Shown here: positions 7,327 to 39,706 of the stretch, piece after piece
How positions within the stretch are numbered: the first letter of the stretch is position 1
Layout: each line of letters opens with the position of its first letter
UHGV virus genome: UHGV-0181052
Direction: 5' to 3' (one strand)
Source: a virus
Length of the DNA stretch: 48,673 bases
Notes under the pieces: generated by a model
What the model saw: only the letters and a program-made list of their open reading frames with translations
Database searches by the model: none
Told to the model about the DNA's origin: nothing
Program-made: the position numbers and the translations under genes

Positions 7327-7530
7327 ATGACCATCACACTGATTTTGAAAGAGCACCGTGAGCGCGCTGGGTTTTCCCAGCGTAGTCTGGCGAAAGCAGC
7401 AGGTATTGCGCAGTGTCGCGTATGCCGTTATGACAATGGCCGTGAGTTCCCGACCATTGAAACCATGATCCGCCTCGCAAAGCCTTTAGGCATTAAGTGG
7501 CATGAACTCGTAAAAGTAGAAGGGGAATAA
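7327..7530 (+). CDS. HTH (XRE/Cro-like) transcriptional regulator
   Basis: 67 aa. RAGFSQRSLAKAAGIAQCRVCRYDNG is a helix-turn-helix signature. Confidence 0.7.
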   Translation: MTITLILKEHRERAGFSQRSLAKAAGIAQCRVCRYDNGREFPTIETMIRLAKPLGIKWHELVKVEGE

Positions 7531-12000: not shown

Positions 12001-15000
12001 CACCAGCGGCCAGTGTGGCTTCGTTGATGTTCAGCGCGGTAGGCCATGCTGCCTGTCCTGCGGAGGTGCGAACCATTAAGCCCACCAGACAGCTCCAGCC
12101 TTCCGGGGGCGTCTCGGTTTCCGGCATCATTGCCCAGCACTCAAAGCGGTACACGGCGCTTTCTCGAATAGCCGTTTCATAGCCGATAGTCTTATCAGAG
12201 TTGCCGGTTTCACCGTTTGCACGGCGGCACATGAGCGACTTCTGACCACTGAATGCGAATTCCGTGGTCACCAGCCCGTTAGCTCCGCCGATCGCCTGCT
12301 GGTTATCATACGACTCAAATGAGCCATCTACCCACGGGTTGCTGTTGCTGTACTGAACCGTGAGTAAACGGTTAGTCAGCTGGGTGATCGAGCTGCCCTG
12401 CGACGTGATGTCGTTACCCTGCTGGGTCACTTTCGTGTTCAGCGAGGTGATCGCGTCAGCGTTCGCCTGGATCTTGGTGTCGTTGGTGATGTCGACAACG
12501 TAGACGTCGTCGAAATACATCGCGCCAGCGCTCAGCCATGTAGTCAGCTGGAACAGCGCGTTAGTGGTCTTCGTGGCCGTCCAGTCCATGAAGACGTGTT
12601 GCCATTCAGACGTAAACGGGCCGTAGTTCGTACCGATAAGAAGATTGCCTGATGCGTCAGCGATGCGGAATTTCGTGTTACCCGGATCGTTGATGACAGT
12701 CCCGGTGTCCTGCTTGGCAAACACGCCGAAGCGGTACCGGCGGCCCTGCGTGATTTCCACGGCCTGACTGATTCCAGCACTTCCGCCTGCCGCCATCTTG
12801 GCAATCTTGGTTCCAGAATGCGGCTGCGTTGCCGTGATGATGGTAGCAAGGCTGCTCCATCCGGTGAAGTTAACCGGGCCACGCTCAAACGATGAGTTAG
12901 CCAGCAGGTTGCCGGGGATCTTGCCCTGCGCGTCGATTGATGCGTCAGTGGCTGACAGGCTGTTGCTCAGCTGGGTGATCGACTGACCCTGTGAATCAAT
13001 CTTTCCTTCGGCAGTCGATACGCGGGTAGTGAGCGCATTCAGCGCCGAAGCGTCTGCCTTGCTGTTCACGATGCCGGTGAGCGTGCTCAGATCGCCGGTC
13101 AGCTTGGTGATGGCCTGACCCTGAGACGTGATCGACCCTTCCGCAGAAGTGACACGGGTGGTCAGCTGGGTGATCGCCGTGGCGTTGGCGTCAGCCTTGC
13201 TTTCTGCATTCGCCGCTGCGGTAATGTCGCGAACGCTCCAGTCAGTTGCATACCAGACTGTACCGAAGTCCGGGCCGCCCTGAGCGATTTGCAGGAATGG
13301 ACGGAAGTAACCCTTCGCACCCTGCGCCGCGTTTACTGTCCAGCGCCACGTAGTGCGCGTCCACTTCGCGCCGGTAGCCGCTGAGATCTGGCCGCCGTTA
13401 GCCTGTGGTGACCCGATGCTGCCAGAAACCACCGTCGACGTACCGATGTAGTGCTGGAATGGCGCGGAGCCGGTACCACATGCAGCCAGTACTGATAACT
13501 CAAACACCTGCCCTTCGCGGCACGGGATGTTATTCATTGCCGGAACATGATCGCGGTACTGGCATTTGATTGCCCACGGGTAAGGGCAGTCGGCCGGAAC
13601 GCCTTCGGACGCGGTTGAAACTACGGTAAGCCCCATCTGACCGTATGCCGGGTCTACCGTCGGGTTCGGGATGAGGTTGGCCGCCTGAGTCAGCGCGCCC
13701 TTGATCGATGAGTTGATCGAGGTGATAGCCTCAGCTTGAGAATCAATCTTCCCTTCCGCTGCGGTGACGCGGGTCGTCAGGTTCGTGATCGCCGTGGAGT
13801 TAGCAGCGATCTTCCCGTTCGCTGTCGACAGGTCACTGGTGAGCTGGGTAATGGCGTTGCCATGCGCAGTGATCTTCCCTTCCGCGGTGGTGACCCGGGT
13901 AGTCAGCGACTGCAACGCGCTCGCGTCAGCCTTGTTGTTCAGCGCGGTGTTGATGTCCTGCACTGAGTTGTTCAGCGTCAGGATTGCGGCGCTGTTCGAG
14001 TCAACCTTCCCGGCGGTCTGCTCAACCTGAGATGAGAGGATCTGCGAGGCGGATGCGGCCGCCAGCTGACCGGCACCACTGAACAGCTGATCAACGTTAT
14101 CGGACAGCTTGAGTCCGAAGTTGATATAGAACTGGCCGGTGATCTGTGCAACCACAAATTCCAGCGTGTTCCAGCCCTTTTTGAGCACCAGGTTGTAGGT
14201 AGCGGTGCTTGCGCCGAAGGTGGCCGCCTCTGCGCCGTTGATGTACAACCGGCCGGTATCGTCCACGATGCGGGAGCCGGGAGCGATGGCAATAGTCTTG
14301 TCAGCCGCGACATACACCAGAGACTTCGCATACGCGATTTTGTAGTCGCCGTATGTCAGGAAGTCCAGCTTTGCAGCGTCGGCCATCTCGGACACGGCCA
14401 GAGGAGGAACGCCAGACAGGTCGGACAGTTTCGGGATGTACCCGCTACCGTTAACCTTGATGTCGAAGATCTTGGTCAGCCAGTACTTCGCTTTACCGTT
14501 CTGCGCGGTGTTCTGCAAATCGGTGATGGCCTGACCCTGCGAAGAGATGGTGTTCCCCTGCTGGGTGACAGTGGTCGCCAGCTGCTGCAATGCGCTCGCT
14601 TCGGCCTTGGTCGCCATCTGACCCTGCAAGGTGCTCACGTCGCCTTTGAGCTGGGTGATCGCCTGGCTGTTAGTGCTGATGGTGCCTTCCGCCGCAGTGA
14701 CGCGTGTAGTCAGTGCCTGCAACGCGCTTGCGCTGGCATTGTCAGCCGGTGCTTCGCTCCACTCGGTAGGCATGGTGCCGTACTCGAATTTGGGCGAGCT
14801 GATGTAAACCTCTTTGTCCTTAGACCCTTTCAGCAGTCGGCCAAAGATTACGCGCTGGGTGCCTGTCTGGCCGCTCTTACGGGTGTACTTAACCCAGTAA
14901 CGCGCCCAGTCTTCCGTAAGGTCGATTGTCATCGAACCATCGCCACCATTAGACCAGCTGCCAGTTTTCCCTTGGCTGCTTAAAGCCGTAAGCGTGGCGT

Positions 15001-18000
15001 TCGGGTTGTACAGGTAGACGAAAATTTGCTTACTGTCGGCGTTGTTCGCTTTCGCGTAGAAGCTGACGACCACTTCGGTGCCGTCGATCGGAGCCGCAAG
15101 CTCATATTCAAATTGGTCGTAGGAGCCAGCTGAGGCCGCTGCAATCGCGATGCGACGGATAGCATTGCCTTTGTACGTCTGACCCTGCACAACGCCGCTG
15201 ACGCCTGCCAGCGTGCCAGAGTTAGGGATCAGGTTGGTGCCGCCGACGCGCATGTTATTCAGGTCACTGCGCAGGTTGGTGATCAGGCTGCTGTTTGCCG
15301 TCACTCGACCATCCAGCGCGGTCACGTCTGTTTTGAGCTGGCTGATGGCCGCGGCATTAGCGCCGATCTTGCCGTTCGCGTCAGTAAGGTCGCTTTGAAG
15401 CTGGGTGAGCGCCTGCGCCTGAGACTGGTTTTCGCTGGTCAGCGTGTCGAGACGCTGGGTCACGGCGGCCTTGTTCGCGTTGTAGTCAGTGCGCAGGGTG
15501 TTGACATCGCTGGCGATCGCCTGTTCTGCGGTGACGCGGGTCTGGCGCTCGTTGAAGATGATGCCTGTCACCAGCTTGGACGGGTCGGTTCCCTCATAGT
15601 TCCCGCGGAGCTGTACGGCCAGCGTGTTACGTGCTGCGGCTTCGGCTGAGTCCGCCGCGGTCATGGCGGTGCGAAGATCCTGAATCTGCGCCTGAGACGC
15701 GCCCGGGGTCGGACGTCCGACGGCCATCCAGTCGATCGCGTAGTAGTTATTGGCGTCCTGATTGGTTGAGAAGTCCAGACGCAGGCGGCGCACGGTGCCG
15801 GATGTCGCCCACAGCAGATCAGGCAGCGACAGGACGGTAATGCCGGTGGTCGGGTCAAAGTCAGGTGCCGGGATGGTCAGGGAGCGGGCATTGTTCCAGC
15901 CTGTCTCATCCACGCCAATCCAATACAGCTTACCAGCCCATGCCGGGTTACCTACCTTCTTCATGCGCAGGCGCATGTACTTATAGCTGCGCGCGTCGAT
16001 TGCCAGCGGGTTCGGTGAGCGCATGGTGGCCGCTGCGCCAGCAGGGTACACCCAACCATCCTGGTCGACGGGGAGCAGGTTGGTGTTGGCATCGTCAGAA
16101 GCCCAGCCTTCCGGCCCATTGTCGAAGTACCAGATCGCGAGGCTGTCGAACTGTTCGCCGGTACCAGCGGCAATGGATGCCATCTGCTGCGCCAGGCTGT
16201 CGAATCCGTCCTGCATCGTGGTGTTAGTGGTGCTGATCTGCGCTTCAACTTCGTTCTTCGCGGTCAGCAGGTTGGCCGCTGCGTCAGCTGCTACTTGTGC
16301 GTCATCCGTCTCGGCTTTCGCGATAGCGTCGGCCACGTCCTGAGCCGCCTTGTTGGCGTTCGCGATGTCGCCAGCCTTACGATCGAGGATCTCCTGAGCG
16401 ATTGCGCTGGCGTTAGCCGCCCCCGCGTTAGCGGTGTTGGTGATGTCCTGCGCGTTCTTCTGGATCTCGGCCAGCTGGTTGTTCAGCTGCTGCTGCTGCT
16501 GCTGGTTGGTCGCCACGGCGTCATCTGCGGTGACCTGTGCAGCCTGAGCGGCATCTTTCGCGGCCTGTGCGCTGTCGCCAACTTCCTTGATCCCGCTGGT
16601 CAGCTCGCCGTAGGTGTCGGAGCCTTTGATCGCGTCGTCGATGTTCTGGTAATAGTCGTCCATGTTGTCGGACGTCATCGCCATGACCGGGGCGCTCCAC
16701 TCGCCAGCGTCGCTATATGACGACACAAAGCGGGCGCGTACCTGCACGCGTTCGGCGAAGCTGAGGCCTGCCTGAGTGAACGTTCCGGTTGGGTAGGTCA
16801 CGACGCTGAGATCGATCCATTCGCCAACCGGCGCGCCTGCGTCATTGATACGCTGGAATTGTAGCTCGGTTGACTTCATGTCAACGAGGTCGTCTGTGCC
16901 GGTGACCCAGCGCCAGGTGATGCCGTTCACGATGCCGACGCCGTTCAGGCCAGCTACTGCCGGGATGCTGCCGCGCTTGCCGTCAACGAACACCTGATTC
17001 GACTCGACCCACTGAGACGACCCGCCGTCACGGGACACGGAACGAACGCGGAACTGATAGGTGCCGGTCAGAACGTTGGTCAGATCAACGGACGTGCTCG
17101 ACTGGCTGGCGAGGTTAGTCCAGCCCTGTGACCACTGGCCGTTAGACTGAGAGGTTCGACGCACCTGAATGTCGTAGCTGACAGCCTGATCGACGGTGAA
17201 CCAAGAACAGTTGACGTTGGCGGAGCGAAGACCCTGGTTAACGATGCTGTAGCCTTCGGCCACCACGTTAGTCGGTGCCGGTACCTGACCGGTCGGGATC
17301 AGCGAGGTCGGACGGTCTTCAATTCTCGCGCCGGTATCAACCTGCAAATACTTCGAGTGGCTGTATTGCAGACCGGTGACGGTGAAATTGTTGTCCTGCT
17401 CGTTGTAGGTGATCTTGGTGATGCGGATTAGTTCAGGGGCCAGCTCCTGAGTATCCAGCAGGAACACTTCGCCGCTCTGAATATCCAGGTCAGTGCCGTC
17501 GACGGTGAAGGACATCCGGTCAGCCGCGATTGCGTTGATCACGCGGTTGTAGGTGCCATCGGTTCCACCCTGACGAACGATTACGCGATCGCCGATTGCC
17601 ACGTGATCGGAGATCATGCGGTCTGAGGTGATGGTGGTGCCGGATACGCCAGCCACACGGCCGCCGAACTGTCCGCCCTGCACGTAGCGGTTGGCGATGC
17701 CGACGACGTCGCCGATCAGGTACTTGATGCCGTTCAGGCCGACGCGGTAGCTGATCTGCATATCGTTGATGTTCGACAGCAGCGCCCACAGGCCGCGTCG
17801 TTGCGCCTCGTATTCGTCGGTGCAGCCGATACCGGAAACTTCCAGCGGCTCGACGCCATAGCGTTCCACGAGGTCTTTGAACTGCGCGACGGTGGTCTGC
17901 GTCTTATAGTGCGCCTTCGGGTCGTCAAAGGTGACCATCGCGATCCCGCGACGGTTAGCCATGCTGCCGTAGGAGTATTCGAAGGTGCCGTTCACTACGT

Positions 18001-19147
18001 CGTCGTTCGTCACAACGTGACGGACTTCTGCCGGTGCGTCCTGCGCGAACTGCAACTGCATGTTGCTGTAGCTGACCATGCCGTTAAAGATCGACGCCAG
18101 GTCACGGATGACGCTCCACGCATGCGCACGCTTCTGGATATACACGTTGCAGGTGTAGCGGCGGTTCTGCGTGCCGTCGGCGTTCGTCACCAGCTCATCA
18201 CAGCGCTGTGCGATGCTGTACATCGTCCACTTGTTCAGGAATGAGGCCGGGATACGGCGGCCAATGCCGAAGCGCTTATGCAGAACAATGTCGTAGACGA
18301 TCCATGCCGGGTTATCAGTCCACGCCTGTTTAAATGTCCCGTTCCACGACCCGCTATAGGTGTGGTTCACCGGGTCATAGTTGGACGGAACCAGAACCAG
18401 CCGGCCGCCCATCTTGATGCTGATTTTCGGGATGTTCTGGAATGATTTGGCGTCGAAGCTGACGAACAGCAGGGACGTCCACGGGTAACGAACGCGGGCG
18501 TCAACGATCTCGGTGATAGCCACGATCCCGGAGTTGAGAACGGTGGTATCAGAGGTGCTATCGTCAGTGAGCCGGGTCACGCGGATTTGCCAGCCGGTGC
18601 TGCTCTTAGGCAGGTCGATGCGGTGATCGCGCTCATAGTTGTCTTTCTGCTTACCGTCCACAGCCCCATCGAAGGCCACGGTGTAGACGCTGTCGCCGAC
18701 TTTGCGGTATTCGATCCGATAATCAATGCGGCCGCCGACGCGATCCCCGTCCTTCTGCTGGATGACCAGACGGAAGTTCATACGGATACGGACGGCGTCG
18801 ATCTCGGTATTGGTGACGTTACGCACCCATGCAGCCGACTTTTTCAGCTCCACGTTAATGCGTGTCTCACTCTCCACCGCCGGGAAGCCGTTGATCGGCT
18901 CCTGCTGCGGGGTGCCGTTTCGATATTCCAGTGTTACGCCGGGAATGTTAACTGAGCCGTCTTCGTTCTGAACGGGAGTCCCGTCAAGATAAACGCGCTT
19001 CGGCAGGTCTTCCGCGCTAATCGGCACGGTTTCACCCTCTGACAACGCAAGTAGCATCCTTACCGTTGCGTTGCTGATCAGGGAGTCTGGATCTTCAACG
19101 GGAGTATGCACGTTGCTACTCCCGCCCTTGTATCCTTTGATTTCCAT
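9080..19147 (-). CDS. giant central tail fiber / host-specificity protein (lambda J-like N- and C-terminal parts separated by about 2000 aa of repeated modules)
   Basis: 3355-aa uninterrupted ORF. The N-terminus MEIKGYKGGSSNVHTPVEDPDSLISNATVRMLLALSEGE is J-like, and the C-terminal roughly 350 aa resemble the J receptor-binding region. The middle holds at least 8 repeats of a TTRVTxAEGKI coiled segment plus a roughly 170-aa beta-sandwich, carbohydrate-binding-module-like domain. Confidence 0.9.
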   Translation of the reverse strand: MEIKGYKGGSSNVHTPVEDPDSLISNATVRMLLALSEGETVPISAEDLPKRVYLDGTPVQNEDGSVNIPGVTLEYRNGTPQQEPINGFPAVESETRINVELKKSAAWVRNVTNTEIDAVRIRMNFRLVIQQKDGDRVGGRIDYRIEYRKVGDSVYTVAFDGAVDGKQKDNYERDHRIDLPKSSTGWQIRVTRLTDDSTSDTTVLNSGIVAITEIVDARVRYPWTSLLFVSFDAKSFQNIPKISIKMGGRLVLVPSNYDPVNHTYSGSWNGTFKQAWTDNPAWIVYDIVLHKRFGIGRRIPASFLNKWTMYSIAQRCDELVTNADGTQNRRYTCNVYIQKRAHAWSVIRDLASIFNGMVSYSNMQLQFAQDAPAEVRHVVTNDDVVNGTFEYSYGSMANRRGIAMVTFDDPKAHYKTQTTVAQFKDLVERYGVEPLEVSGIGCTDEYEAQRRGLWALLSNINDMQISYRVGLNGIKYLIGDVVGIANRYVQGGQFGGRVAGVSGTTITSDRMISDHVAIGDRVIVRQGGTDGTYNRVINAIAADRMSFTVDGTDLDIQSGEVFLLDTQELAPELIRITKITYNEQDNNFTVTGLQYSHSKYLQVDTGARIEDRPTSLIPTGQVPAPTNVVAEGYSIVNQGLRSANVNCSWFTVDQAVSYDIQVRRTSQSNGQWSQGWTNLASQSSTSVDLTNVLTGTYQFRVRSVSRDGGSSQWVESNQVFVDGKRGSIPAVAGLNGVGIVNGITWRWVTGTDDLVDMKSTELQFQRINDAGAPVGEWIDLSVVTYPTGTFTQAGLSFAERVQVRARFVSSYSDAGEWSAPVMAMTSDNMDDYYQNIDDAIKGSDTYGELTSGIKEVGDSAQAAKDAAQAAQVTADDAVATNQQQQQQLNNQLAEIQKNAQDITNTANAGAANASAIAQEILDRKAGDIANANKAAQDVADAIAKAETDDAQVAADAAANLLTAKNEVEAQISTTNTTMQDGFDSLAQQMASIAAGTGEQFDSLAIWYFDNGPEGWASDDANTNLLPVDQDGWVYPAGAAATMRSPNPLAIDARSYKYMRLRMKKVGNPAWAGKLYWIGVDETGWNNARSLTIPAPDFDPTTGITVLSLPDLLWATSGTVRRLRLDFSTNQDANNYYAIDWMAVGRPTPGASQAQIQDLRTAMTAADSAEAAARNTLAVQLRGNYEGTDPSKLVTGIIFNERQTRVTAEQAIASDVNTLRTDYNANKAAVTQRLDTLTSENQSQAQALTQLQSDLTDANGKIGANAAAISQLKTDVTALDGRVTANSSLITNLRSDLNNMRVGGTNLIPNSGTLAGVSGVVQGQTYKGNAIRRIAIAAASAGSYDQFEYELAAPIDGTEVVVSFYAKANNADSKQIFVYLYNPNATLTALSSQGKTGSWSNGGDGSMTIDLTEDWARYWVKYTRKSGQTGTQRVIFGRLLKGSKDKEVYISSPKFEYGTMPTEWSEAPADNASASALQALTTRVTAAEGTISTNSQAITQLKGDVSTLQGQMATKAEASALQQLATTVTQQGNTISSQGQAITDLQNTAQNGKAKYWLTKIFDIKVNGSGYIPKLSDLSGVPPLAVSEMADAAKLDFLTYGDYKIAYAKSLVYVAADKTIAIAPGSRIVDDTGRLYINGAEAATFGASTATYNLVLKKGWNTLEFVVAQITGQFYINFGLKLSDNVDQLFSGAGQLAAASASQILSSQVEQTAGKVDSNSAAILTLNNSVQDINTALNNKADASALQSLTTRVTTAEGKITAHGNAITQLTSDLSTANGKIAANSTAITNLTTRVTAAEGKIDSQAEAITSINSSIKGALTQAANLIPNPTVDPAYGQMGLTVVSTASEGVPADCPYPWAIKCQYRDHVPAMNNIPCREGQVFELSVLAACGTGSAPFQHYIGTSTVVSGSIGSPQANGGQISAATGAKWTRTTWRWTVNAAQGAKGYFRPFLQIAQGGPDFGTVWYATDWSVRDITAAANAESKADANATAITQLTTRVTSAEGSITSQGQAITKLTGDLSTLTGIVNSKADASALNALTTRVSTAEGKIDSQGQSITQLSNSLSATDASIDAQGKIPGNLLANSSFERGPVNFTGWSSLATIITATQPHSGTKIAKMAAGGSAGISQAVEITQGRRYRFGVFAKQDTGTVINDPGNTKFRIADASGNLLIGTNYGPFTSEWQHVFMDWTATKTTNALFQLTTWLSAGAMYFDDVYVVDITNDTKIQANADAITSLNTKVTQQGNDITSQGSSITQLTNRLLTVQYSNSNPWVDGSFESYDNQQAIGGANGLVTTEFAFSGQKSLMCRRANGETGNSDKTIGYETAIRESAVYRFECWAMMPETETPPEGWSCLVGLMVRTSAGQAAWPTALNINEATLAAGGGRGKWVKFSGKIGAGGAQKTRGRLWISCRGTSGGPGYRVFIDDLVITDVTDAHAAQITADANASAINSLTSRVSSAEGKITSQADAITKLNGDVSTINGTLSQKADASAVTALQTRVTTAEDKIESQGTAITNLNNGLEAQRRTGENLVQNYDFLQGDTAYSLQRDSFSTVTFGAYGDGKNGVRMVKVNATSPGLFANNKKPVPQNGQRRYRYVVRAKGVSGGMNLLMRRWNYNGSVEGSYSDKNNTLTTDWQTLTWETDLTPASGFDGSAFGLYCHPSNAEVWIDSFKVYDITEELTIKANSAAISSLTTTVTQQGQDITAQSNALTQLKSSLTNDAVALAANPDNMLTNTGFERGTDSWSGWSSRADVYAAQAPKSGAMILRGKSGGNTAIGQNVLGAKAGRTYRFGGYVKRTADMAIGPNTYGNNKFRLGNATTGAGPLSELNFSEANIGTNWTLLTKDFVPATDMDVAYSINWNLATGEIYFDDVFFIDVTDEINNAANATAISNLTTRVTTAEGKITSQGTAITQLTADLSTANGKITANANAITSLQSTVTQQGNTLTSQGQAITKLNSDLSDLSGVVDTKASASALNSLTTRVTNAEGKITANSNALTSLTSRVGNAESAIDGLNETTAANGLAMANGFQQLRAQIGDNQAAITQTNKAVVDLETATAQQIDTINASMDGMSATVQQTSTAVADINGKLSAQWGVKVQTDTGGGNPRIAGIQLGIDASGSSQFLVQADTFAVYAGGSNKTFPFVVQNGVAYMQEALIRDGSITNAKIGNEIRSNNFVDGSQGWRIAKDGSSQFNNVIVRGRVEANSGVFKGTLQAESFIGDIAVARRYDDMSFRRNQTVQRNGAYQNRGYGMTVVLSCTLVYQLTGAGNVQQSYSVDITFNIGGQEVTRRFFANASGFQAGDFTQEFRFAADLAADNNNVTFFIKARGNDASFDYNCSIQNITATAFRTNSNSFS
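16486..16503 (-). repeat. (CTG)6 microsatellite inside the J-like gene, encoding Q6 on the coding strand
   Basis: ctgctgctgctgctgctg. Because it is a triplet repeat, slippage would preserve the reading frame. Confidence 0.8.
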
Positions 19148-19746
19148 TAAGAACGTACCTCGTTAGCGATGATTCCGGCGCTGATGATAGCACCCCCGAT
19201 CTCACGCTCGCCATACAAAACGCCCACGATGTTACCTTGTGCTGTCGTGTTGACCGGTTGGCCGAAGGCGTATGACGGCGCGTTGGCGTCATCCTCCCTG
19301 ATCCTCATGCCTGTCGACTGAGGGGAGAGCATCTGCATGACCCCGCCAGCAGCCGTGGAGATACCAGCAGCCACGAGGTAAGGGGAGACAGCCTGCCCGC
19401 CAGGGATGAACGAAGCCACGACGCCCGCGACAATCATTGCAGCGCCCAGGATGGTCTGAAACAGGCCGCCCTTCTTGTTGCCGATGATGATCGGTGCGAT
19501 GCGGAATTCTTCGCCGTCAGGGATTGGCTGCGACATCTCGTTGAAGCCGATGTTCCGCTTACCGATGAACGGGGCGAAGGTCAGGCCGCGAGACTGGCTG
19601 TCTCGCATGTACTGGTCGAAGCCGGGGAGGATGGCGGAAAGGGCGCTGATTGCTTCGGCGCAGGAGTCGACCGCGAGGTGATGGACACGCCCGAAGCGCG
19701 CGCCCATTTCCCCATACAGTCGGATTGTGCTTAGCTGGTTTCCCAT
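19147..19746 (-). CDS. tail assembly protein (lambda gpI-like)
   Basis: Position and size match. The start/stop overlap (TAATG) with the J gene. Confidence 0.8.
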   Translation of the reverse strand: MGNQLSTIRLYGEMGARFGRVHHLAVDSCAEAISALSAILPGFDQYMRDSQSRGLTFAPFIGKRNIGFNEMSQPIPDGEEFRIAPIIIGNKKGGLFQTILGAAMIVAGVVASFIPGGQAVSPYLVAAGISTAAGGVMQMLSPQSTGMRIREDDANAPSYAFGQPVNTTAQGNIVGVLYGEREIGGAIISAGIIANEVRS

Positions 19747-20480
19747 TGTGTGATCTCCGGTAATAACTCATGCCGGAGGATACCAGTAATGCGCGGCTCA
19801 AGGTAAGTGCCGTACATCCTGTCGATGGTCGACTTACGATTCATGAGGTGGTGCATGATCATCCCGTCGCCGGTGTAGATCCCGCAGTGATTGCTCACGC
19901 TGGCGGCGATGCGGAATACCACCATATCGCCCGGCTCAGCCTCAGCCTTCTTGATAAATCCCGCTGCTGCAAAATTCTCGTCCGTGAAAAGCTCCTCTCC
20001 TTTCTCCCACCACGGGTACGGCTTGCGGAAGTCTGGCAACTGGATGCCGCGCGAACGGTGCCATGCCATCACCAGGCCGTAGCAGTCGGTAGCGCCCAGC
20101 ACGAAGTCACGACCCAGCAGCCCCTTCGGCTCCTCAAAGAATACCGCCATCTCATCCTTGTCCGGGGCGTAGATGAACCACGGCAAGCACGTCTCCTGCA
20201 TAAGCTGGCGATCGAGGATTGACGGATACGCCAGACCGTCGGCACCGGGATGCGAATGGATGACGGCCACGATGTTACCGGCGTCCTCAGCCTCAGCGAA
20301 GTCCTGCGGGGCAATGCGGAAGCTGTTCATTTTGTCGGCCGCTGAGTTGATGACCGGCCAGTATTCGAGGCCTCCACCTGAATCCACCAGAAGCCCGCAG
20401 CCCTCTTGCGGCGAACACTCAGTAAGATGTTGTTTAATATACGTTAATTGCTGTTCCGGGATGTCTTTTACGTCAATCAT
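19731..20480 (-). CDS. tail assembly protein (lambda gpK-like, MPN/JAB plus NlpC/P60 domains)
   Basis: Start moved to the ATG at 20480 with a GGAGG RBS. HSHP...D in the N-terminal half (JAB-like) and a C...H pattern in the C-terminal half. Confidence 0.8.
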   Translation of the reverse strand: MIDVKDIPEQQLTYIKQHLTECSPQEGCGLLVDSGGGLEYWPVINSAADKMNSFRIAPQDFAEAEDAGNIVAVIHSHPGADGLAYPSILDRQLMQETCLPWFIYAPDKDEMAVFFEEPKGLLGRDFVLGATDCYGLVMAWHRSRGIQLPDFRKPYPWWEKGEELFTDENFAAAGFIKKAEAEPGDMVVFRIAASVSNHCGIYTGDGMIMHHLMNRKSTIDRMYGTYLEPRITGILRHELLPEITQWETS

Positions 20481-20496
20481 TTTTGCCTCCACTTGG

Positions 20497-20556
20497 CACC
20501 ACCTGAAATTTTAAGCTATTGATTTAAAAGGCTGAATTTCAGGTGTTAGGTGGTAT
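20497..20556. repeat. inverted repeat carrying the CCACCTGAAATT box, upstream of gpK
   Basis: The 11-bp arms CACCTGAAATT (20500-20510) and AATTTCAGGTG (20535-20545) are separated by 24 nt. The reverse complement of 20535-20556 matches 37646-37667 at 21 of 22 positions. Confidence 0.6.
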
Positions 20557-20781
20557 GGGTTTATATATTTATTACCATAAATACATATAAGACATACCCA
20601 AGACCATATAAATAAAACTCCCTTGTGAGGGTTTTTATTATATATGGCTATGGGATGTATTCTTATCTTCGTGAATCGAAAACTACGGGCCTGAACGGCA
20701 CGCTGTCGCGTTTAACGCCGTCAGGCCATACGTTCGGACGTCTCAGCCACAAAAACGCCTCAGAACGCGTTACAGCGCGTT

Positions 20782-22053
20782 TTAGTCAATCAGCCTTACC
20801 GAGATGAATCCGCCATAGTCCAGAACGGCCGCTTTCGGGTCACTCACCAGCTGGCCGAAGCGCAGGCGACAGTCCTGAATGCATCCCCCGCATTCGTCCT
20901 TGGTGATGTCGTCCACCTCATTCCCGTGCTTGTCGTACCACTTCTTGGCCGTGCCGCGGTTCCAGCTACACCCGTTTTCCTCCCCTGCATCCAGCCCTTT
21001 ACCGTAAAGCCCGCGCGCCTGCCATTGACAGAACGTCGTGATCTGCCGCGTTGGCACCTGGAAGTTCTGGAGGTCGAGCGGCGACGACAGCGCGAACCGA
21101 ACATACTCTTCGCTCTCATAGTCTGGCCGGTCGATGTAGTAGAGCTGCGTCCACTGCTGCATTGAGTCGGCGTACTGGTTGCCGTCGGTGAAGTTGCGCG
21201 GATCGAGGAACTTCGCATAGGTCTGGATGAGCTTAACCTTTGCCCCGACCATCTGCTGATAGGTGCGCAGGTAGGCGCTGACGACCCCCGACTGGTTGCC
21301 GACGGACAGGGTAGGCGTACCCTGCTGCTCGCTGCTGAACTCGATCCCCTCCGCCATAAACGGCCAGTAGCCATACTCGACGTTATCGAACCAGATTGAC
21401 TTCGGGGCCAGCTTGGATGCGTCGACCTCGTGCGGGTTCTTGTTCAGGATGCTGATTCGCTTGATCTCGATCTCGCCGACCGCCTGCTGCCATAGGTCAA
21501 GGCGAATGCCGATGATCTGGCTATCGACCCAATCGGAGCCGCCAGCGCTCAACTTCGACATATCGAACGAGAATTTCAGCCAGCCATCACCAAGATCCTC
21601 AGTGACTGCCGGTAACAGCCCGGTTTTTAGGTAGCCCGGCGAGAAGTCATGCGCCGCCGTCTTATAGTAGATCTGATACAGGTTATCCGACCCTTCTGGC
21701 GGGGTAATCCAGCGCCCAACCACCTCAATCACCTGATACTTCGAGCCAGTCAGGCCGCCGGTGAACGAAGGCAGCAGCAGGTTCGCGTCAGCAGCCGATG
21801 ATTTGAAGTTGATGGTGTTCCGGTCTTCGTTGGCCGTCACTTTCCCGCGGCCGCCATTGCCGTAGCACTTGAACAGCTGATCGCGGGTCAGCGTGCTGTT
21901 CGCGCTGTCGAGGATCTCCTTGCTCGTGTGCGGGAGCTGGCAATAGTGGCCCCGGATGATCCCAGCGCCGAACTCGGTGCCGTCGATCTCCATGAGAATG
22001 ATCTTGCCCGACGGGTCTAGTTTTGTGGCTTCGTCGAAAATGGTGTTGCTCAT
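20782..22053 (-). CDS. minor tail protein (lambda gpL-like), expanded to 424 aa
   Basis: Start MSNTIFDEATKLDPSGKIILMEIDG at 22053 overlaps the gpM stop (ATGA). The C-terminus DITKDECGGCIQDCRLRF...GGFISV matches the Cys cluster of lambda L. Confidence 0.8.
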   Translation of the reverse strand: MSNTIFDEATKLDPSGKIILMEIDGTEFGAGIIRGHYCQLPHTSKEILDSANSTLTRDQLFKCYGNGGRGKVTANEDRNTINFKSSAADANLLLPSFTGGLTGSKYQVIEVVGRWITPPEGSDNLYQIYYKTAAHDFSPGYLKTGLLPAVTEDLGDGWLKFSFDMSKLSAGGSDWVDSQIIGIRLDLWQQAVGEIEIKRISILNKNPHEVDASKLAPKSIWFDNVEYGYWPFMAEGIEFSSEQQGTPTLSVGNQSGVVSAYLRTYQQMVGAKVKLIQTYAKFLDPRNFTDGNQYADSMQQWTQLYYIDRPDYESEEYVRFALSSPLDLQNFQVPTRQITTFCQWQARGLYGKGLDAGEENGCSWNRGTAKKWYDKHGNEVDDITKDECGGCIQDCRLRFGQLVSDPKAAVLDYGGFISVRLID

Positions 22054-36987: not shown

Positions 36988-37485
36988 TTAGTCGTCACCC
37001 CAGTCGACCGCCTCGGACTCCTCGCGCGGCTTCTCCTCCTTCGGCCGCTCGCTGACGATCTTCAACCGCACCGGCTTGTTGGCGTCACCGGTCACGACGA
37101 TCTCAGTGTTGTCGCGGTAGCCGAAGTTCGCTTTCAGCATGAAGGTCGCGAAAGTACTGTTCGTGGCGAATCCAATATTCAGAATCATCTGCTCGTAAAG
37201 CTCGCGCGCCTGCGTGTAAGCGACAGCAAATTCCTTATGCTTCGAACGCCAGTCATGAAACGTCGTCGTCGTGATGCCGATGCTTTCACAGAAATTGAGA
37301 ATAGACGGCATGTGCTTCGGGTTGATGCGGATGTTGCTCTTACCGGCTGTCGTGTGTGAGTGCTGGATATAGTCATCAACGTCGACCCGGAAGTATTCAA
37401 GGAGTTTTTCCGGCATATCCTCGGTGTAACTGGTTGGTCTGCCGACTGGGTTCCGCGGTGTCGTCACCTTCACCTTGTCAGTCAT
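36988..37485 (-). CDS. terminase small subunit (putative)
   Basis: 165 aa, first gene of the leftward late unit, with an N-terminal HTH-like region and an acidic tail. The assignment rests partly on position. Confidence 0.55.
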   Translation of the reverse strand: MTDKVKVTTPRNPVGRPTSYTEDMPEKLLEYFRVDVDDYIQHSHTTAGKSNIRINPKHMPSILNFCESIGITTTTFHDWRSKHKEFAVAYTQARELYEQMILNIGFATNSTFATFMLKANFGYRDNTEIVVTGDANKPVRLKIVSERPKEEKPREESEAVDWGDD

Positions 37486-37549
37486 GTTGTTTTTCCTCTT
37501 TCAAGTGGCTCTGCCTCAGTTTACCCCTATACGGCATGGTGGGGAGAAT

Positions 37550-37582
37550 AAAAACGCGCAGCCACTGCGTAGCGCTTTTTTC
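37550..37582. terminator. GC-rich imperfect hairpin flanked by A5 and T6 (bidirectional terminator-like), upstream of terS
   Basis: AAAAACGCGCAGCCACTGCGTAGCGCTTTTTT. Confidence 0.35.
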
Positions 37583-37645
37583 TTCCCCCATGTGCGTAAG
37601 GGTGTACGTGTTTCTGTAATTATATGGGTTTTATATATAATAGGG

Positions 37646-37810
37646 ATACCACCTAACACCCGAAATTAATCCTTTCATATCAGTAGCTTGCGAACGTCAG
37701 GAAGTGAGGTGTTTCGACATCTCCACCTGAATTAATCCTTTCGCATCAATCACTTAGTATTTTCACCGCTCGAAGCACGGCAAAATGCCTCCACCCGAAA
37801 TATTGCTGAC
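37646..37810 (+). repeat. iteron-like direct repeats in the divergent control region (candidate origin of replication)
   Basis: Copy A GAAATTAATCCTTTCATATCA at 37662-37682. Copy B GAATTAATCCTTTCGCATCA at 37730-37749. Each is preceded by CCACCT. A third partial copy CCACCCGAAATATTGC lies at 37791-37806. Confidence 0.55.
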
Positions 37811-37989
37811 ACTGTACACGCACTTTTTGTGCTCAATTTGTGTACAGCGATTCTGTGGATAACTTTTCCCCAGTCGATTGATTTCACTGGAAAATATAAT
37901 ATTGATACGGGGGAGTCCCTATCTGTTGTGTTTACATACTGTATAAGCGCTCAAAGTCCTCCCTGTTTTCAGGTGGAAAGTAATTGCTA

Positions 37990-38021
37990 TTGACACGGTA
38001 TTACTCGCCGTTAATAATACC
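37990..38021 (+). promoter_or_regulatory. early promoter P_rep with dyad
   Basis: TTGACA 37990-37995, 16-17 nt, TAATAAT. The dyad is GGTATTA / TAATACC. The UTR ACCCGAACC is related to those of P1 and P2. Confidence 0.65.
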
Positions 38022-38044: not shown

Positions 38045-39706
38045 ATGAACGAAGAGAACAAAAGGCCGATGACGCCAGACGACTGGAAGGCGTTGCTGGG
38101 CGATCAGGAGAAACAGCACGAAGCGGCGGACATTCTCAACCAGCCGATGACCCGCGAGGAAGAGGACGAAGCCTACTCGCAGGAAATGGCCGATATGCAG
38201 GCGTACTTCGACCAGGTAGCACGTGCTGAGGTGGAGGCACTCGAACAGGAGGAAGATGTAGCGCCACCTGCTCCACCTGAACCACCTAAGCAGAAGAAGA
38301 AAGACGCCGGACAGCGCCACCTTGAGCTGCAACGCATCGTTCGCGAGGAGAATGAAAAGCAGAATCTCGGCATGGACTTATCCGCCCAGCGCGTTGAGGT
38401 GGCAAAGCGTCTCGCTGAGGAAGTCGAGCAGGGTCTGGTTGAAGATCCTGCACTGAAAGACTACGACCCGGGCGAGTACGTGCTGAACACCTCGCCGGAC
38501 TTCTACGACCCGGTGATCGAAGGCCTGCTGAACCGCCGAACCATCAACGAGATCAACGGTGATGCAGGCGCGGGCAAGACGACGCTGCTGGTGCAAATGG
38601 CCGTCAGCCTCGCCATGGGTCGACCGCTGTTCAACTGCTTCCGCGTGTGTAACCCGGGTGTCAGCGTGTTCTTCACCGAAGACCCGGACAGCGTCGAGTT
38701 GCAGGTGGCCGCCTGGTCGCTGCGCACTGGCGTGAATCTTCGCGACTGGATCAAGGTGTTCAAGCGGCCGGCCGATCTGATGGAGCCGGGTAAGCTGCGC
38801 ATCCAGAAGAGTCGCGTGTTGCAGTTCGCCAACGGCAGGCCGGTGAATCTGGTCATCTTCGACAGCAAAATGTTCCACCTGGCCGCAGCCAACAACAACG
38901 GCGTGAGCATGGACGAGAACAGCAACACCGACCAGCAGTTGATCACCACCGCCGGGCACCGGTTCGCTGAGTCCCTCAACTGCGCCGGGATCTTCATCCC
39001 GCACGTCAGCAAGGGAAGCCTGATGTCCGGCCAGTACGACCTTGAGTCTCGTGGTGGATCGGCAGCGAAGGGCGCGGTGTATAAAACGTTCAGCCTGGTG
39101 CGCGAGAAGACGCAGACCGGCAAGGGGTTGAACGCCCGCCAGAAGGAGACAGGCTACACTGTCCTGAACGTCGGCAAGAGCCGCCAGGGCGGGTTGAAGG
39201 GGCGCTTTAAGCTCAAAGGCTTTCAGGTGCCGGTATTCGCGAAGGACGTTGAGGCGAAGAAGAAAAGCACGTATGAGAAGAAGCTCGCACCGGGTCAGGA
39301 GGTCGATCGGCCAGACTTCATCTACATCGACGACGCCACGAAGGTATGGCTGTTCGAAGACCGCGTTTACGATATGGACGCCGGTTCAGAGGATGAGCAT
39401 TTTGAACCGGAAGAGAAGCGTCAGGCGCACGTGTACACGCCATTGCAGGAGGCTGTTTATTCGCTGCTGAGGGCTGAGCCGCATGGCACCGCGCCGTACA
39501 AGGAGATCCTGCACCGTATCAGCTCCACGGTGTTCAAGGCCGACGGCTCGCCGTATTCCCGGGAGTCAGTGCGCGACGCAATTTACAAAATGGCTGAGCT
39601 GGGGCACCTGAGCAAAGAGGCTAACCCACACGAAGCCCGTAACCCGTATTACACGATCAAAGATGCCGTTCCCCCGCTGATGGGTAGCTGCCGTGATAAC
39701 CACTGA
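38045..39706 (+). CDS. replication protein: RecA-like (AAA_25 / DnaB-type) ATPase with C-terminal winged-helix domain
   Basis: Walker A NGDAGAGKTTLLVQMA, Walker B VNLVIFDS. The C-terminal wHTH-like region is YSLLRAEPHGTAPYKEILHRI. The gene is driven by the P_rep promoter and preceded by iteron-like repeats. Confidence 0.75.
   Translation: MNEENKRPMTPDDWKALLGDQEKQHEAADILNQPMTREEEDEAYSQEMADMQAYFDQVARAEVEALEQEEDVAPPAPPEPPKQKKKDAGQRHLELQRIVREENEKQNLGMDLSAQRVEVAKRLAEEVEQGLVEDPALKDYDPGEYVLNTSPDFYDPVIEGLLNRRTINEINGDAGAGKTTLLVQMAVSLAMGRPLFNCFRVCNPGVSVFFTEDPDSVELQVAAWSLRTGVNLRDWIKVFKRPADLMEPGKLRIQKSRVLQFANGRPVNLVIFDSKMFHLAAANNNGVSMDENSNTDQQLITTAGHRFAESLNCAGIFIPHVSKGSLMSGQYDLESRGGSAAKGAVYKTFSLVREKTQTGKGLNARQKETGYTVLNVGKSRQGGLKGRFKLKGFQVPVFAKDVEAKKKSTYEKKLAPGQEVDRPDFIYIDDATKVWLFEDRVYDMDAGSEDEHFEPEEKRQAHVYTPLQEAVYSLLRAEPHGTAPYKEILHRISSTVFKADGSPYSRESVRDAIYKMAELGHLSKEANPHEARNPYYTIKDAVPPLMGSCRDNH

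Follow-up and report, generated by a model that had tools for sequence, protein, structure and literature searches.

A Conserved Non-Coding Island between Tail Genes L and K of a Kp3-Like Klebsiella Phage, a Putative Auxiliary Origin-Like Site

The Gap between Tail Genes L and K

The window, i.e., the whole stretch of 48,673 nucleotides analyzed here, is the complete genome of a Kp3-like Klebsiella siphophage whose late genes are encoded by the minus strand. An intergenic gap of 301 nt (positions 20481-20781) separates tail genes L and K and confirms the island of about 300 bp that an earlier note on this DNA had placed between them. Relatives have gpL annotated with the same extent, and its canonical tail L domain is confined to residues 216-421. 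The island is the only non-coding break in the 30-kb late operon, and it lies between the conserved head/tail-shaft genes and the swappable tail-tip/host-range genes, precisely at the junction that precedes the variable ones. Most of it is AT-rich: the stretch from 20504 to 20685 has 30% GC, compared to 57.8% for the genome, and is the largest AT island in the window. This stretch had been noticed before, but at 182 nt it is larger than the roughly 130 bp claimed, and the genome GC content had been put at about 55%. The coordinates of the features are collected in Table 1.

Table 1. Genes and sequence features of the L-K gap, the terS-rep region and the candidate binding proteins, in window coordinates.
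Feature	Position	Strand	Sequence or remark
XRE protein (repressor)	7327-7530		67 aa; candidate regulator
gpK	19731-20480	minus	249 aa; JAB/MPN and NlpC/P60
K start codon	20480-20478	minus	ATG
K ribosome-binding site	20486-20490	minus	GGAGG
Module, gap copy	20497-20597	minus	about 100 nt; homologous to 37604-37706 (+)
Second gap box, inverted	20500-20510	minus	AATTTCAGGTG; 9 nt upstream of K ribosome-binding site
Perfect inverted repeat, 11 nt	20500-20510 / 20535-20545		CACCTGAAATT; arms 24 nt apart
Putative IHF site	20512-20524	minus	AATCAATAGCTTA; centered between the two inverted boxes
Lineage-specific box, 22 nt	20535-20556	minus	ATACCACCTAACACCTGAAATT; two overlapping CCACCTRA half-repeats
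Candidate unwinding element	20560-20613		least stable duplex of the whole genome
Invariant ATATATA tract	~20562-20569		
Hairpin H2	20589-20661		long imperfect palindrome; core CCCT-loop-AGGG at 20620-20631, AAAA and TTTTT flanks
Sequence after H1	20687-20673	minus	CGTAGTTTTCGATT
Hairpin H1	20688-20727	minus	GGCCTGACGGCG...CGTGCCGTTCAGGCC; inner CGCG/CGTG stem
Palindrome	20688-20698 / 20718-20727		GGCCTGAACGG/CCGTCAGGCC
Hairpin H0	20751-20783	minus	AAAACGCGCTGTAACGCGTTCTGAGGCGTTTTT; directly 3' of L stop; inner 6-bp stem
Palindrome	20764-20781		AACGCG-TTACAG-CGCGTT
L stop codon	20784-20782	minus	TAA
gpL	20782-22053	minus	423 aa; Phage_tail_L
Small terminase (TerS)	36988-37485	minus	P22 gp3-like (GP3_package); first late-operon gene; rival candidate binder
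Bidirectional terminator-like hairpin	37549-37585		between terS and second module copy
Module, second copy	37604-37706	plus	terS-rep intergenic; ATATATAAT tract and box 37646-37667
IHF-like site	37678-37690		TATCAGTAGCTTG; in second module copy
Further box copies	37723-37733 (+), 37791-37801 (+), 37966-37976 (-)		
Second IHF-like site of terS-rep region	37744-37756		
DnaA box	37854-37862	minus	TTATCCACA; only exact one in window
rep promoter	37990-38018	plus	strong sigma-70-type; TTGACA-17-AATAAT, 11/12
Rep	38045-39706	plus	553 aa; RepA-like (AAA_25) helicase with C-terminal winged-helix domain
Rep winged-helix domain	~39420-39664		residues ~460-540

The alignment with related phages that had been proposed as a check places the gap in all of the Kp3-like relatives inspected (34 obtained with megablast, plus more distant ones), at a length of 300-375 nt, and K70PH128C1 has it as well, though BLAST did not pick that gap up. 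Phages in which K is just 36% identical also have the gap; in the JVSB2-type phages it contains a mosaic junction, the C-terminus of L being 89% identical and K 36%. In the HSE3 group, the first 220 nt of the gap are 93% identical, compared to about 82% for the flanking genes. The outgroups lack the gap: L and K are 2 nt apart in HK578 and overlap in an IMG/VR locus (L007), which agrees with the expectation that these genes are normally adjacent or overlapping in lambda-like tails. The ATCEA85 record opens within the L-K gap.

Public annotations of the gap are at odds, with three small hypothetical proteins that differ from each other and in strand. Open reading frames of at least 20 codons differ by lineage in frame, strand and extent, and none is conserved in frame across the relatives. 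A missed protein-coding gene was therefore rejected, and a coding gene at this place in related phages, which the earlier note had named as a refuting observation, was not seen. The earlier suggestion that the island is the remnant of a small mobile insertion fares no better. The island has a fixed position throughout the clade, its repeat listing shows neither terminal inverted repeats nor a target-site duplication, and the phage, plasmid and E. coli collections contain no full-length copies; a MITE or similar element was rejected because it would have such repeats, duplication and dispersed copies. Within the genome, the island has one partial paralogue.

A Module in Two Copies

This paralogue lies in the terS-rep intergenic region and matches the K-proximal part of the gap at 76 of 105 positions (E = 4e-11 within the genome). 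The earlier note had reported a 22-nt box common to the gap and the origin region; the box does match at 21 of 22 positions, and two matches arose in none of 100 shuffles, but the similarity extends over about 100 nt. The module reads, in order, ATATATA tract, box, IHF consensus and second box.

The last 11 nt of the 22-nt gap box form the first arm of a perfect inverted repeat. This repeat and its 24-nt spacer are as described before, except that it ends 9 nt rather than 10 nt before the GGAGG of K. Its arms are free of G-U wobble. The orientation of the second box varies, being inverted in the window, both inverted and direct in JVSB2 and direct in K70, and so the potential to form a stem is not the conserved property. 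These comparisons of sequences suggest that the box acts as a putative DNA-binding site rather than as an RNA hairpin. Its core, CCACCYGAAAT, occurs seven times in the window at up to one mismatch, where 1.4 would be expected; the gap contains two of these copies and 37656-37976 contains four.

The spacer contains AATCAATAGCTTA, the sole exact match in the 48.7-kb window to the IHF consensus WATCAANNNNTTR, and the IHF core TCA....TT is invariant in all 15 module copies, which represent seven lineages. On the other side of the 22-nt box is the least stable DNA of the genome, where a 30-nt window has a dG of -27.9, the mean over the genome being -45.4 (sd 3.3). Ranked by duplex stability, the two lowest windows of the genome are each next to a box, one in each module copy. 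The gap thus has a candidate for the adjacent AT-rich unwinding element of an iteron-type theta origin. It has two to three boxes and no DnaA box. Most of the module copies compared have an ATATATA(A) tract without the -7 T, and no -35 element is kept.

Hairpins Downstream of L

Three hairpins (H0, H1 and H2) lie between the L stop codon and the module, and the two imperfect palindromes noticed earlier just after this stop codon are both present, as parts of H0 and H1. With an A run on one side of its stem and a T run on the other, H0 looks like a bidirectional terminator. H0 forms the initial part of a 69-bp unit, of which one relative (L005) has 4.1 perfect tandem copies; the 34-nt H0 sequence also occurs in about 800 plasmids. 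H1 has compensatory changes, a G-C pair having become A-U in four of 11 sequences and an inner A-U pair having become U-A or G-C. In H2, six pairs are doubly compensated between clades, including the change from CCCT/AGGG to CCCG/CGGG. Altogether, 14 base pairs of the gap show double compensatory changes, and its folding exceeds that of shuffled sequence (-106 kcal/mol, z = -6.2). Since both strands fold equally well (-53.4 and -54.6 kcal/mol), the acting strand is not identifiable from their energies; G-U versus A-C pairs were rejected as a strand indicator because the reasoning is circular.

Consensus scans of both strands of the gap detected neither a terminator nor a sigma-70 promoter. The GC stems of H0 and H2 are short, with A4-5 and T5 flanks, and H1 has an interrupted U tract; a strict scan gave no terminator. 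No -35 and -10 hexamers are spaced at 16-18 nt on either strand, and a search by eye for sigma-32, sigma-28, sigma-E and T4-late motifs gave no match that was consistent across lineages. Rfam searches of the gap at a permissive threshold returned just chance matches to miRNA models (E below about 1), and ARAGORN found no tRNA or tmRNA. The internal terminator plus promoter proposed in the earlier note therefore has a mixed outcome: there are three conserved, compensated hairpins after L, two of them with A/T runs, but the scans find neither element and the ATATATA tract mostly lacks the -7 T.

One explanation for this much structure would be an RNA element of the late mRNA, in which a segment of about 220 nt together with the hairpin before K would provide processing, stability or anti-termination (nut- or put-like) signals and would set the ratio of shaft to tip gene products. 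The folding relative to shuffled sequence and the 14 doubly compensated pairs are what such an element would predict, and each module copy is oriented with its own downstream genes, as nutL and nutR are. However, the two strands fold alike, the hairpin before K is not kept (the K70 boxes are direct), the additional boxes are found in either orientation, the conserved "loop" matches the IHF DNA consensus exactly, and no Rfam family, tRNA or tmRNA was found. We consider this explanation quite unlikely. A nut/put-type site in the strict sense, with a conserved RNA stem-loop, was rejected on the direct boxes of K70 and the lack of an Rfam match.

The terS-rep Region

The second module copy is preceded by a hairpin whose structure, but not sequence, is kept in EKq1, K70 and one further relative (L028). 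Downstream of it, extra box copies in both orientations populate the region; the boxes are spaced about 67 nt apart, which is looser than in classical iterons. The DnaA box is kept in JVSB2, S8a and Diencephalon, and the -35 hexamer of the rep promoter begins 14 nt downstream of the last box copy. This region would be the main box cluster, with features of a replication origin, and from its sequence we propose that the primary origin is located there. The cumulative GC skew has a maximum near 18-20 kb that is weak, too small to be informative and confounded by gene composition.

No sigma-70 promoter was found upstream of terS, and so the phage must use non-canonical promoters. This observation is relevant to an explanation in terms of operon punctuation, which we regard as possible but rather unlikely. 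The hairpins would stop or attenuate the terS-to-L transcript, and the module would be a regulated internal promoter and operator for K-I-J and the tail fiber; its regulator, either the 67-aa XRE protein or a late activator, would be common to the homologous terS-rep promoter, with IHF as an architectural cofactor. A late-activator target is also among the roles that the earlier note proposed, and it is conceivable. Besides the need for non-canonical promoters, several patterns are in keeping with this. The three hairpins after L are conserved and compensated, and two have A and T runs; the terS-rep region repeats the layout of terminator-like hairpin, about 50 nt and module; the ATATATAAT of the second copy includes a perfect TATAAT; the XRE protein diverges in the HSE3 lineage as well; and the mosaic junction that precedes the variable tip and host-range genes coincides exactly with the island. 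Should late transcription indeed end at the hairpins, K-I-J would need a promoter in the island, and that need would favor such a promoter or a dual role.

Other patterns are difficult to reconcile with punctuation. The consensus scans of both strands show no promoter- or terminator-like site, and the ATATATA(A) tract mostly lacks the essential -7 T and has no conserved -35. Furthermore, the gap copy points toward K, and the copy in the terS-rep region points toward rep and away from terS; the two are opposite relative to the late genes and therefore cannot both be late promoters. The rep gene already has its own near-consensus promoter, and the lysis genes and other transcription units have no preceding module copy.

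Box Co-Variation and Candidate Binders

The boxes fall into at least four clearly distinct types: that of the window, Kp3 and Mingus, with a close variant in ER4; that of EKq1 and HSE3; that of JVSB2, Diencephalon and S8a; and that of K70. The gap box matches the terS-rep box of its own genome at 17-22 of 22 positions, compared to 12-16 of 22 for the boxes of other groups. HSE3 lacks the second module copy, unlike its near-twin EKq1, which stands in for it in this comparison, and the P0006 contig, with a more distant Rep, contributes the terS-rep region only, its L-K gap being beyond the 10-kb flank. In K70PH128C1, the 9-mer ACGCGAAAT has six copies in 47.5 kb, and all six are confined to the two regions, together 2% of the genome. 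That gap and terS-rep boxes change together by lineage makes a secondary site for the protein that binds the iteron region the best supported of the four roles proposed in the earlier note, as far as sequence comparison goes. The co-variation could also stem from gene conversion between the copies instead of from a shared protein.

The favored candidate for a binder of the boxes is the winged-helix C-terminus of Rep, a choice based on sequence comparison and a structural model. The C-terminus is confidently predicted to be a winged helix (pLDDT 79-92) with a MarR-type Foldseek match; the full-length model is poor (pLDDT 57), and the domain alone is usable. Its identity to the window domain follows box similarity (Kp3 99%, ER4 94%, JVSB2 75%, EKq1 62% and K70 53%), which, since the lineages number seven, amounts to a rank correlation only. 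In EKq1, the helicase core of Rep is 96% identical and the C-terminus 62%. A homologue search with the C-terminal fragment alone gave no matches and one with full-length Rep gave nine; a search of PDB sequences with Rep gave only a marginal match to RSF1010 RepA. The matches are limited to AAA_25/RepA-like helicase families, and homology to SPP1 gp38 was not found among them. The N-terminal HTH half of TerS and the 67-aa XRE repressor likewise diverge between lineages.

TerS would be the binder if the boxes were a packaging site, i.e., an array like lambda cosB, whose main set would precede terS and to which the tail operon would add a secondary pac-like site. In lambda cosB (R3-I1-R2), gpNu1-binding repeats flank an IHF site. 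The box, IHF and inverted box of the gap resemble this layout, the main cluster is directly upstream of terS, and the terS HTH half diverges between lineages; one could add the start of the ATCEA85 record in the gap and an odd PhageTerm result for EKq1, an 8.8-kb "direct terminal repeat". Nevertheless, we regard packaging as highly improbable. TerS is P22 gp3-like and not Nu1-like, and in P22 the pac site is part of terS itself. The HTH identity of TerS does not follow box similarity, for the ER4 box is near-identical while its HTH is 67% identical, as low as in distant lineages. The two sites are 17 kb apart, not the reported 8.8 kb, and the DnaA box and the box near the rep promoter suit replication better. 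A lambda-type cosB was rejected on the GP3_package family of TerS and the distance of the gap copy from terS.

It is very unlikely, in our opinion, that the island is a passive feature, either a non-coding linker or recombination joint for tail-tip cassettes or a functionless insertion remnant. The mosaic junction within the gap, the tandem amplification of the 69-bp unit in one relative and the H0 sequence common to many plasmids are what one might expect of such DNA. Against this, co-variation of the box with a distant locus has held through the at least four distinct types, neither the IHF consensus nor the ATATATA tract varies, the island is better conserved than its flanking genes in the HSE3 group, the hairpins show compensatory changes, and terminal inverted repeats, a target duplication and other full copies were not seen.

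A Possible Auxiliary Origin

The most likely explanation for the island, in our tentative judgment, is an auxiliary origin-like site and not junk or a missed gene. This reading draws on clade-wide conservation without coding, the duplication of the module and the co-variation of its copies, and on an origin-like syntax, namely the IHF consensus, the melting minima, the DnaA box and the box before the rep promoter; Rep as a candidate binder and the precedent of SPP1 add to it. Several points weigh against it: the gap lacks a DnaA box and has just two to three boxes, the terS-rep boxes are loosely spaced, the case for Rep is a rank correlation and TerS and the XRE repressor diverge as well, gene conversion could account for the co-variation, and terminating hairpins would call for a promoter in the island. 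The island may well be a cis-acting DNA element that contains a second putative site cluster for the phage's own sequence-specific DNA-binding protein, although we would not call this probable outright. By analogy with SPP1 oriR and P4 crr, our preferred, still provisional, picture is a second initiator-binding, IHF-bent, origin-like site located after three hairpins. From the sequence patterns, we infer the identity of the binder, the use of IHF and any role in replication.

The auxiliary site might work as follows. The boxes would be bound by the winged-helix domain of the Rep helicase, and IHF would bend the 24-nt spacer so that the two bound boxes are brought together. The resulting nucleoprotein complex would adjoin the most meltable DNA of the genome and would serve, comparably to SPP1 oriR and P4 crr, either as an auxiliary origin or replication enhancer or else as a replication-fork barrier. 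Presumably H0, H1 and H2 punctuate or attenuate the late transcription that arrives from L.

A more speculative and unlikely proposal is that a Rep/IHF complex on the island is a physical coupling device that does three things at once. It would stall or fire forks and so lead to the theta-to-sigma switch; it would gate late read-through into K-I-J and thereby make tip gene expression dependent on the state of replication; and it would provide a conserved non-coding joint for the exchange of host-range cassettes between phages.

Comparison with Known Systems

The publications on phages HSE3, EKq1, PMBT64, Diencephalon and MED16 mention no promoters, terminators, origins or L-K gap. The closest parallels come from other systems. 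Lambda cosB, discussed above, shares with the island two repeats that flank an IHF site and a main cluster directly upstream of the small terminase gene; it differs in the type of terminase, and the island has its second copy 17 kb away in the tail genes and boxes near the rep promoter and DnaA box.

In the left half of E. coli oriC and in pSC101/R6K-type origins, an unwinding element is followed by an initiator site, an IHF site and further initiator sites, and IHF bending brings the bound initiator toward meltable DNA. The syntax of the module is the same. Unlike these origins, the gap has no DnaA box and just two to three boxes, and the likeness is one of sequence.

The P4 alpha protein has a helicase and a C-terminal winged-helix origin-binding domain in one polypeptide, and its repeats are at ori and at the distant crr. 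Rep is likewise a helicase with a winged helix, and its putative repeats are at the proposed origin and a second distant region. However, alpha is a primase and SF3 helicase, whereas Rep is an AAA_25 helicase with a RecA fold, and a gene of its own encodes the primase. P4 crr consists of two direct 120-bp repeats and is not known to have an IHF-centered layout. Unlike the island, crr is not known to lie inside a structural operon. The crr region is named in PMC9942202.

SPP1 oriR is a second origin with repeats that bind the initiator (gp38) and an AT-rich unwinding element; the non-coding segment that contains it breaks up the late morphogenesis genes and has transcription signals on either side (PMC6316719, PMC3485210). 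It has been proposed to stall forks and thereby trigger the theta-to-sigma switch (PMC6316719, PMC3485210). The island similarly has a second set of repeats and an AT-rich element kilobases away from a proposed primary origin at the replication gene, and it is a non-coding interruption of the late gene order, here with hairpins upstream and no downstream promoter detected; in this comparison, the island is known from its sequence. Both phages are virulent siphophages with recombination-dependent replication functions, the window phage encoding an exonuclease, an Erf-type annealing protein and an SSB. The differences are that the proteins are unrelated, the window phage having as candidate binder a RepA-like helicase that includes a winged helix, while SPP1 has a gp38-type organizer, a separate loader and a DnaB-type helicase; that the island centers on an IHF consensus with a box on either side; and that it lies between L and K with no moron genes, while the SPP1 segment holds genes 8-10. 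If the island is like SPP1 oriR, the design of a second origin in the late region would extend to unrelated enterobacterial phages with a different replication protein.

Kp3-like phages are candidates for therapy against Klebsiella and are widely isolated for this purpose. The map proposed here has a primary origin in the terS-rep region, a co-evolving second site in the tail operon, a candidate origin-binding domain in Rep and a part that host IHF is predicted to play. As a marker of the junction of the tail-tip/host-range cassette, the island would also be useful for host-range engineering that spares the cis-acting site. The lineage-specific boxes would constitute a specificity code, which could be tested by swapping boxes between phages.

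The gap between L and K

The island of 301 nt that separates the tail genes L and K in the window is very probably a conserved, non-coding, cis-acting element, with a putative protein-binding module that co-evolves with a putative origin. The genome that contains it (~48.7 kb, 57.8% GC) is that of a complete Kp3-like Klebsiella siphophage, and its L-K region is matched by 34 phage records with 82-98% identity. Published work refers to this group solely as a 'Kp3-like' cluster that is unclassified (PMC9022592). The late genes form a minus-strand operon that begins with the small terminase and includes the tape measure, M and L, then the gap, and then K, I, J and a fibre gene. L matches Phage_tail_L in Pfam (aa 216-421 of 423) and K matches JAB plus NlpC/P60.

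An earlier note had described palindromes, an AT-rich stretch and an inverted repeat in the gap, and all of these elements are present where it placed them. However, the AT-rich stretch, reported as roughly 130 bp, is actually 182 nt with 30% GC and exceeds every other AT island in this genome. The gap does not hide a missed protein-coding gene, because no ORF is conserved among the relatives. Depending on the public record, the gap is left empty or bears one of three different small 'hypothetical proteins', not all on one strand, and the ORFs of at least 20 aa in eleven aligned gaps vary in frame, strand and extent, mostly have non-ATG starts and are accompanied by indels of 1-2 nt.

The gap is conserved and clade-specific. 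It is found in all of the relatives that are at least 82% identical, and it is ~330 nt long in the more distant Klebsiella aerogenes phages JVSB2, Diencephalon, VLCpiS8a and ATCEA23, in which the L C-terminus is 89% identical and K only 36%. K70PH128C1 has a 375-nt gap that was undetected by BLAST. The closest outgroups have L and K directly next to each other, 2 nt apart in HK578 and overlapping in IMG/VR locus L007. The HSE3 group is 93% identical over the first 220 nt of the gap vs ~82% over the surrounding 2.7 kb. A mosaic junction also lies inside the gap (L009-L012 vs window 19731-22053): the JVSB2-type L C-terminus is 89% identical and the K N-terminus 36%, and thus the shaft block on one side of the gap is conserved and the tip/host-range block on the other side is swapped.

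Features of the window and lineage-specific forms of the 22-nt box
Feature	Position (strand)	Sequence or description
XRE protein	7327-7530	67 aa
J, central tail fibre	9080-19147	3355 aa
K	20480..19731 (-)
L-K gap	20481-20781	non-coding
Module, gap copy	20497-20597 (-)
IHF-like site	20512-20524	AATCAATAGCTTA
Box: window, Kp3, Mingus	20535-20556 (-)	ATACCACCTAACACCTGAAATT
Box: ER4		..CCCCTGAAATT
Box: EKq1, HSE3		ATTGTCCCTGTTCCGCGAAATT
Box: JVSB2, Diencephalon, S8a		TYACCGTCTGACTTCCGAAATT
Box: K70		TTTTACGCGAAATT
Hairpins H0, H1, H2	20589-20783
18-nt direct repeat	20707-20724 / 20776-20793
69-bp unit	~20708-20784	single
Sequence after L stop	20751-20784 (-)	TAAAACGCGCTGTAACGCGTTCTGAGGCGTTTTT, 34 nt
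L	22053..20782 (-)	423 aa
Coiled-coil protein	35309-36910	533 aa
Small terminase (terS)	37485..36988 (-)
terS leader	37486-37600
Module, terS-rep copy	37604-37706 (+)
DnaA box	37854-37862
rep	38045..39706 (+)	553-aa helicase

A module shared with the terS-rep region

The 22-nt box that the earlier note had matched to the origin region does agree at 21/22 positions, and two matches occurred in 0/100 shuffles; it is, however, only the core of a ~100-nt homology (72% identity, E = 4e-11) between the gap and the intergenic DNA separating terS from rep. The core CCACCYGAAAT occurs 7 times in the window vs 1.4 expected; the gap accounts for two copies and the 560-nt terS-rep intergenic region for four. 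An alignment of 15 module copies covered the gap and the terS-rep region in seven lineages and, from L028, the terS-rep copy. Three parts are invariant (the ATATATA(A) tract, GAAATT at the box end and a TCA....TT core fitting the IHF consensus), and the 22-nt box and a second box are lineage-specific. The only place in 48.7 kb that matches WATCAANNNNTTR exactly is the IHF-like site of the gap, midway between the inverted boxes.

The orientation of the second box varies: it is inverted in the window group and direct in K70, and JVSB2 has both an inverted and a direct copy; therefore, the conserved feature is an IHF site with at least two boxes around it and not a stem. The terS-rep region has additional copies in both orientations, one of which ends 14 nt before the rep promoter's -35 hexamer, and no G-U wobble was seen in the inverted-repeat arms. 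These patterns favor reading the gap module as a putative DNA-binding site rather than an RNA hairpin. The HSE3 record (L019 11093-11560) lacks the terS-proximal module and terminator, both present in the near-identical EKq1 (L023), and its terS is annotated as truncated; a deletion or a fault in the assembly probably explains the absence.

The strongest result of the analysis is that the gap and terS-rep boxes co-vary. Each genome's gap box has its best match in its own terS-rep region, and boxes agree at 17-22/22 positions within groups vs 12-16/22 between groups. For example, the K70 9-mer ACGCGAAAT occurs six times in its genome, two in the gap and four in the terS-rep region. On these sequence patterns, either both loci would be read by one lineage-specific factor or they would be homogenised via gene conversion.

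The terS-rep region has features typical of an origin and control region. It adjoins rep, has repeated boxes and IHF-like sites, and contains the sole exact DnaA box of the window, which is retained in JVSB2, S8a and Diencephalon although the surrounding sequence is unalignable. Duplex stability across the whole genome is lowest in the gap and second lowest in the terS-rep region, and both minima directly adjoin the shared box.

Candidate binding proteins

Rep is an AAA_25 (RSF1010 RepA-like) helicase, and its residues ~460-540 are predicted to form a winged helix (helix-strand-helix-helix-strand-strand, pLDDT 79-92) with a MarR-type match by Foldseek. Identity of this C-terminal domain to that of the window phage (Kp3 99%, ER4 94%, JVSB2 75%, EKq1 62%, K70 53%) parallels box similarity, and the EKq1 helicase core is still 96% identical. 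With few lineages, the winged helix as the putative box binder is a lead rather than proof. The 67-aa XRE protein, which likewise diverges in HSE3, is another candidate.

TerS is disfavored. Its N-terminal HTH half is 99% identical in Kp3, 67% in ER4, 64% in S8a and 63% in K70; ER4 has an almost unchanged box, yet an HTH half as divergent as in distant lineages.

Possible functions and known systems

As the best single mechanism, we tentatively propose that the island is an auxiliary origin, replication enhancer or fork barrier, putatively bound by Rep and IHF. The main rival, a regulated internal promoter or operator, seems less likely. The two are compatible because the hairpins upstream of the module would make K-I-J expression reliant on read-through or re-initiation.

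The island has several analogues. The module order resembles that of oriC and pSC101 (unwinding element, site, IHF, site). A second analogue of the island and Rep is P4, with ori/crr and an alpha helicase that has a winged-helix domain. The layout is also similar to lambda cosB R3-I1-R2, but this phage has a P22 gp3-like terminase, and the TerS data disagree with that comparison. Among documented cases SPP1 oriR comes closest: it combines a second set of gp38-binding repeats with an AT-rich unwinding element, in a non-coding segment that breaks the conserved late gene order and has transcription signals on either side. It is proposed to block forks and so cause a change to the synthesis of concatemers (PMC6316719, PMC3485210). 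As for packaging, PhageTerm gave 'direct terminal repeats of 8,798 bp' for the 48.2-kb EKq1 genome (PMC10793312), whereas headful packaging was suggested for Diencephalon.

Hairpins and other features

Three hairpins (H0, H1 and H2) lie between the L stop and the module. The whole gap folds far more stably than shuffled sequence (z = -6.2), and its alignment has 14 pairs with changes on both sides, e.g., a G-C pair replaced by A-U in H1 and, in the core of H2, CCCG/CGGG in place of CCCT/AGGG. A runs and T runs bracket H0 and H2, so these resemble weak bidirectional terminators; a strict terminator scan of the gap called none of the three. The two strands fold alike (-53.4 vs -54.6 kcal/mol), and therefore folding does not distinguish RNA of either strand from DNA as the acting form.

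L005 (2490-2773, IMGVR_UViG_3300045988_087187) has 4.1 perfect tandem copies of a 69-bp unit starting at the L stop codon and the window has one, bounded by an 18-nt direct repeat; therefore, the left end of the gap is a variable-number repeat. The 34 nt right after the L stop match ~800 enterobacterial plasmids at 94-97% identity, as well as 535 places on E. coli plasmids and Erwinia jumbo phage Kwan. Plasmid pCP53-38k has two unannotated similar copies (L029 2003-2024 and 2192-2213) ~500 bp upstream of its origin. The sequence looks like a terminator-like hairpin common to phage and plasmids. The circular ATCEA85 assembly (L013, MN656993.1) opens ~151 nt past the L stop, at the center of the H2 palindrome, where the assembler may have broken the sequence or where a physical end may be hinted at.

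No sigma-70-type promoter was found in the leader upstream of terS, the first late gene, and a bidirectional terminator-like hairpin precedes the gene; therefore, late transcription probably depends on a phage factor or anti-termination. The gpL protein is about twice the usual size, with an extra N-terminal domain of ~210 aa outside Phage_tail_L; K70PH128C1 L has 267 aa. J has long internal repeats in translation (e.g., 'LTTRVTxAEGKI'); it is 2329 aa in JVSB2 and annotated as several pieces in HSE3. The most divergent late gene encodes the coiled-coil protein between terS and terL, with 42-55% identity to Kp3, ER4 and HSE3, and the adjoining genes are 95-99% identical.
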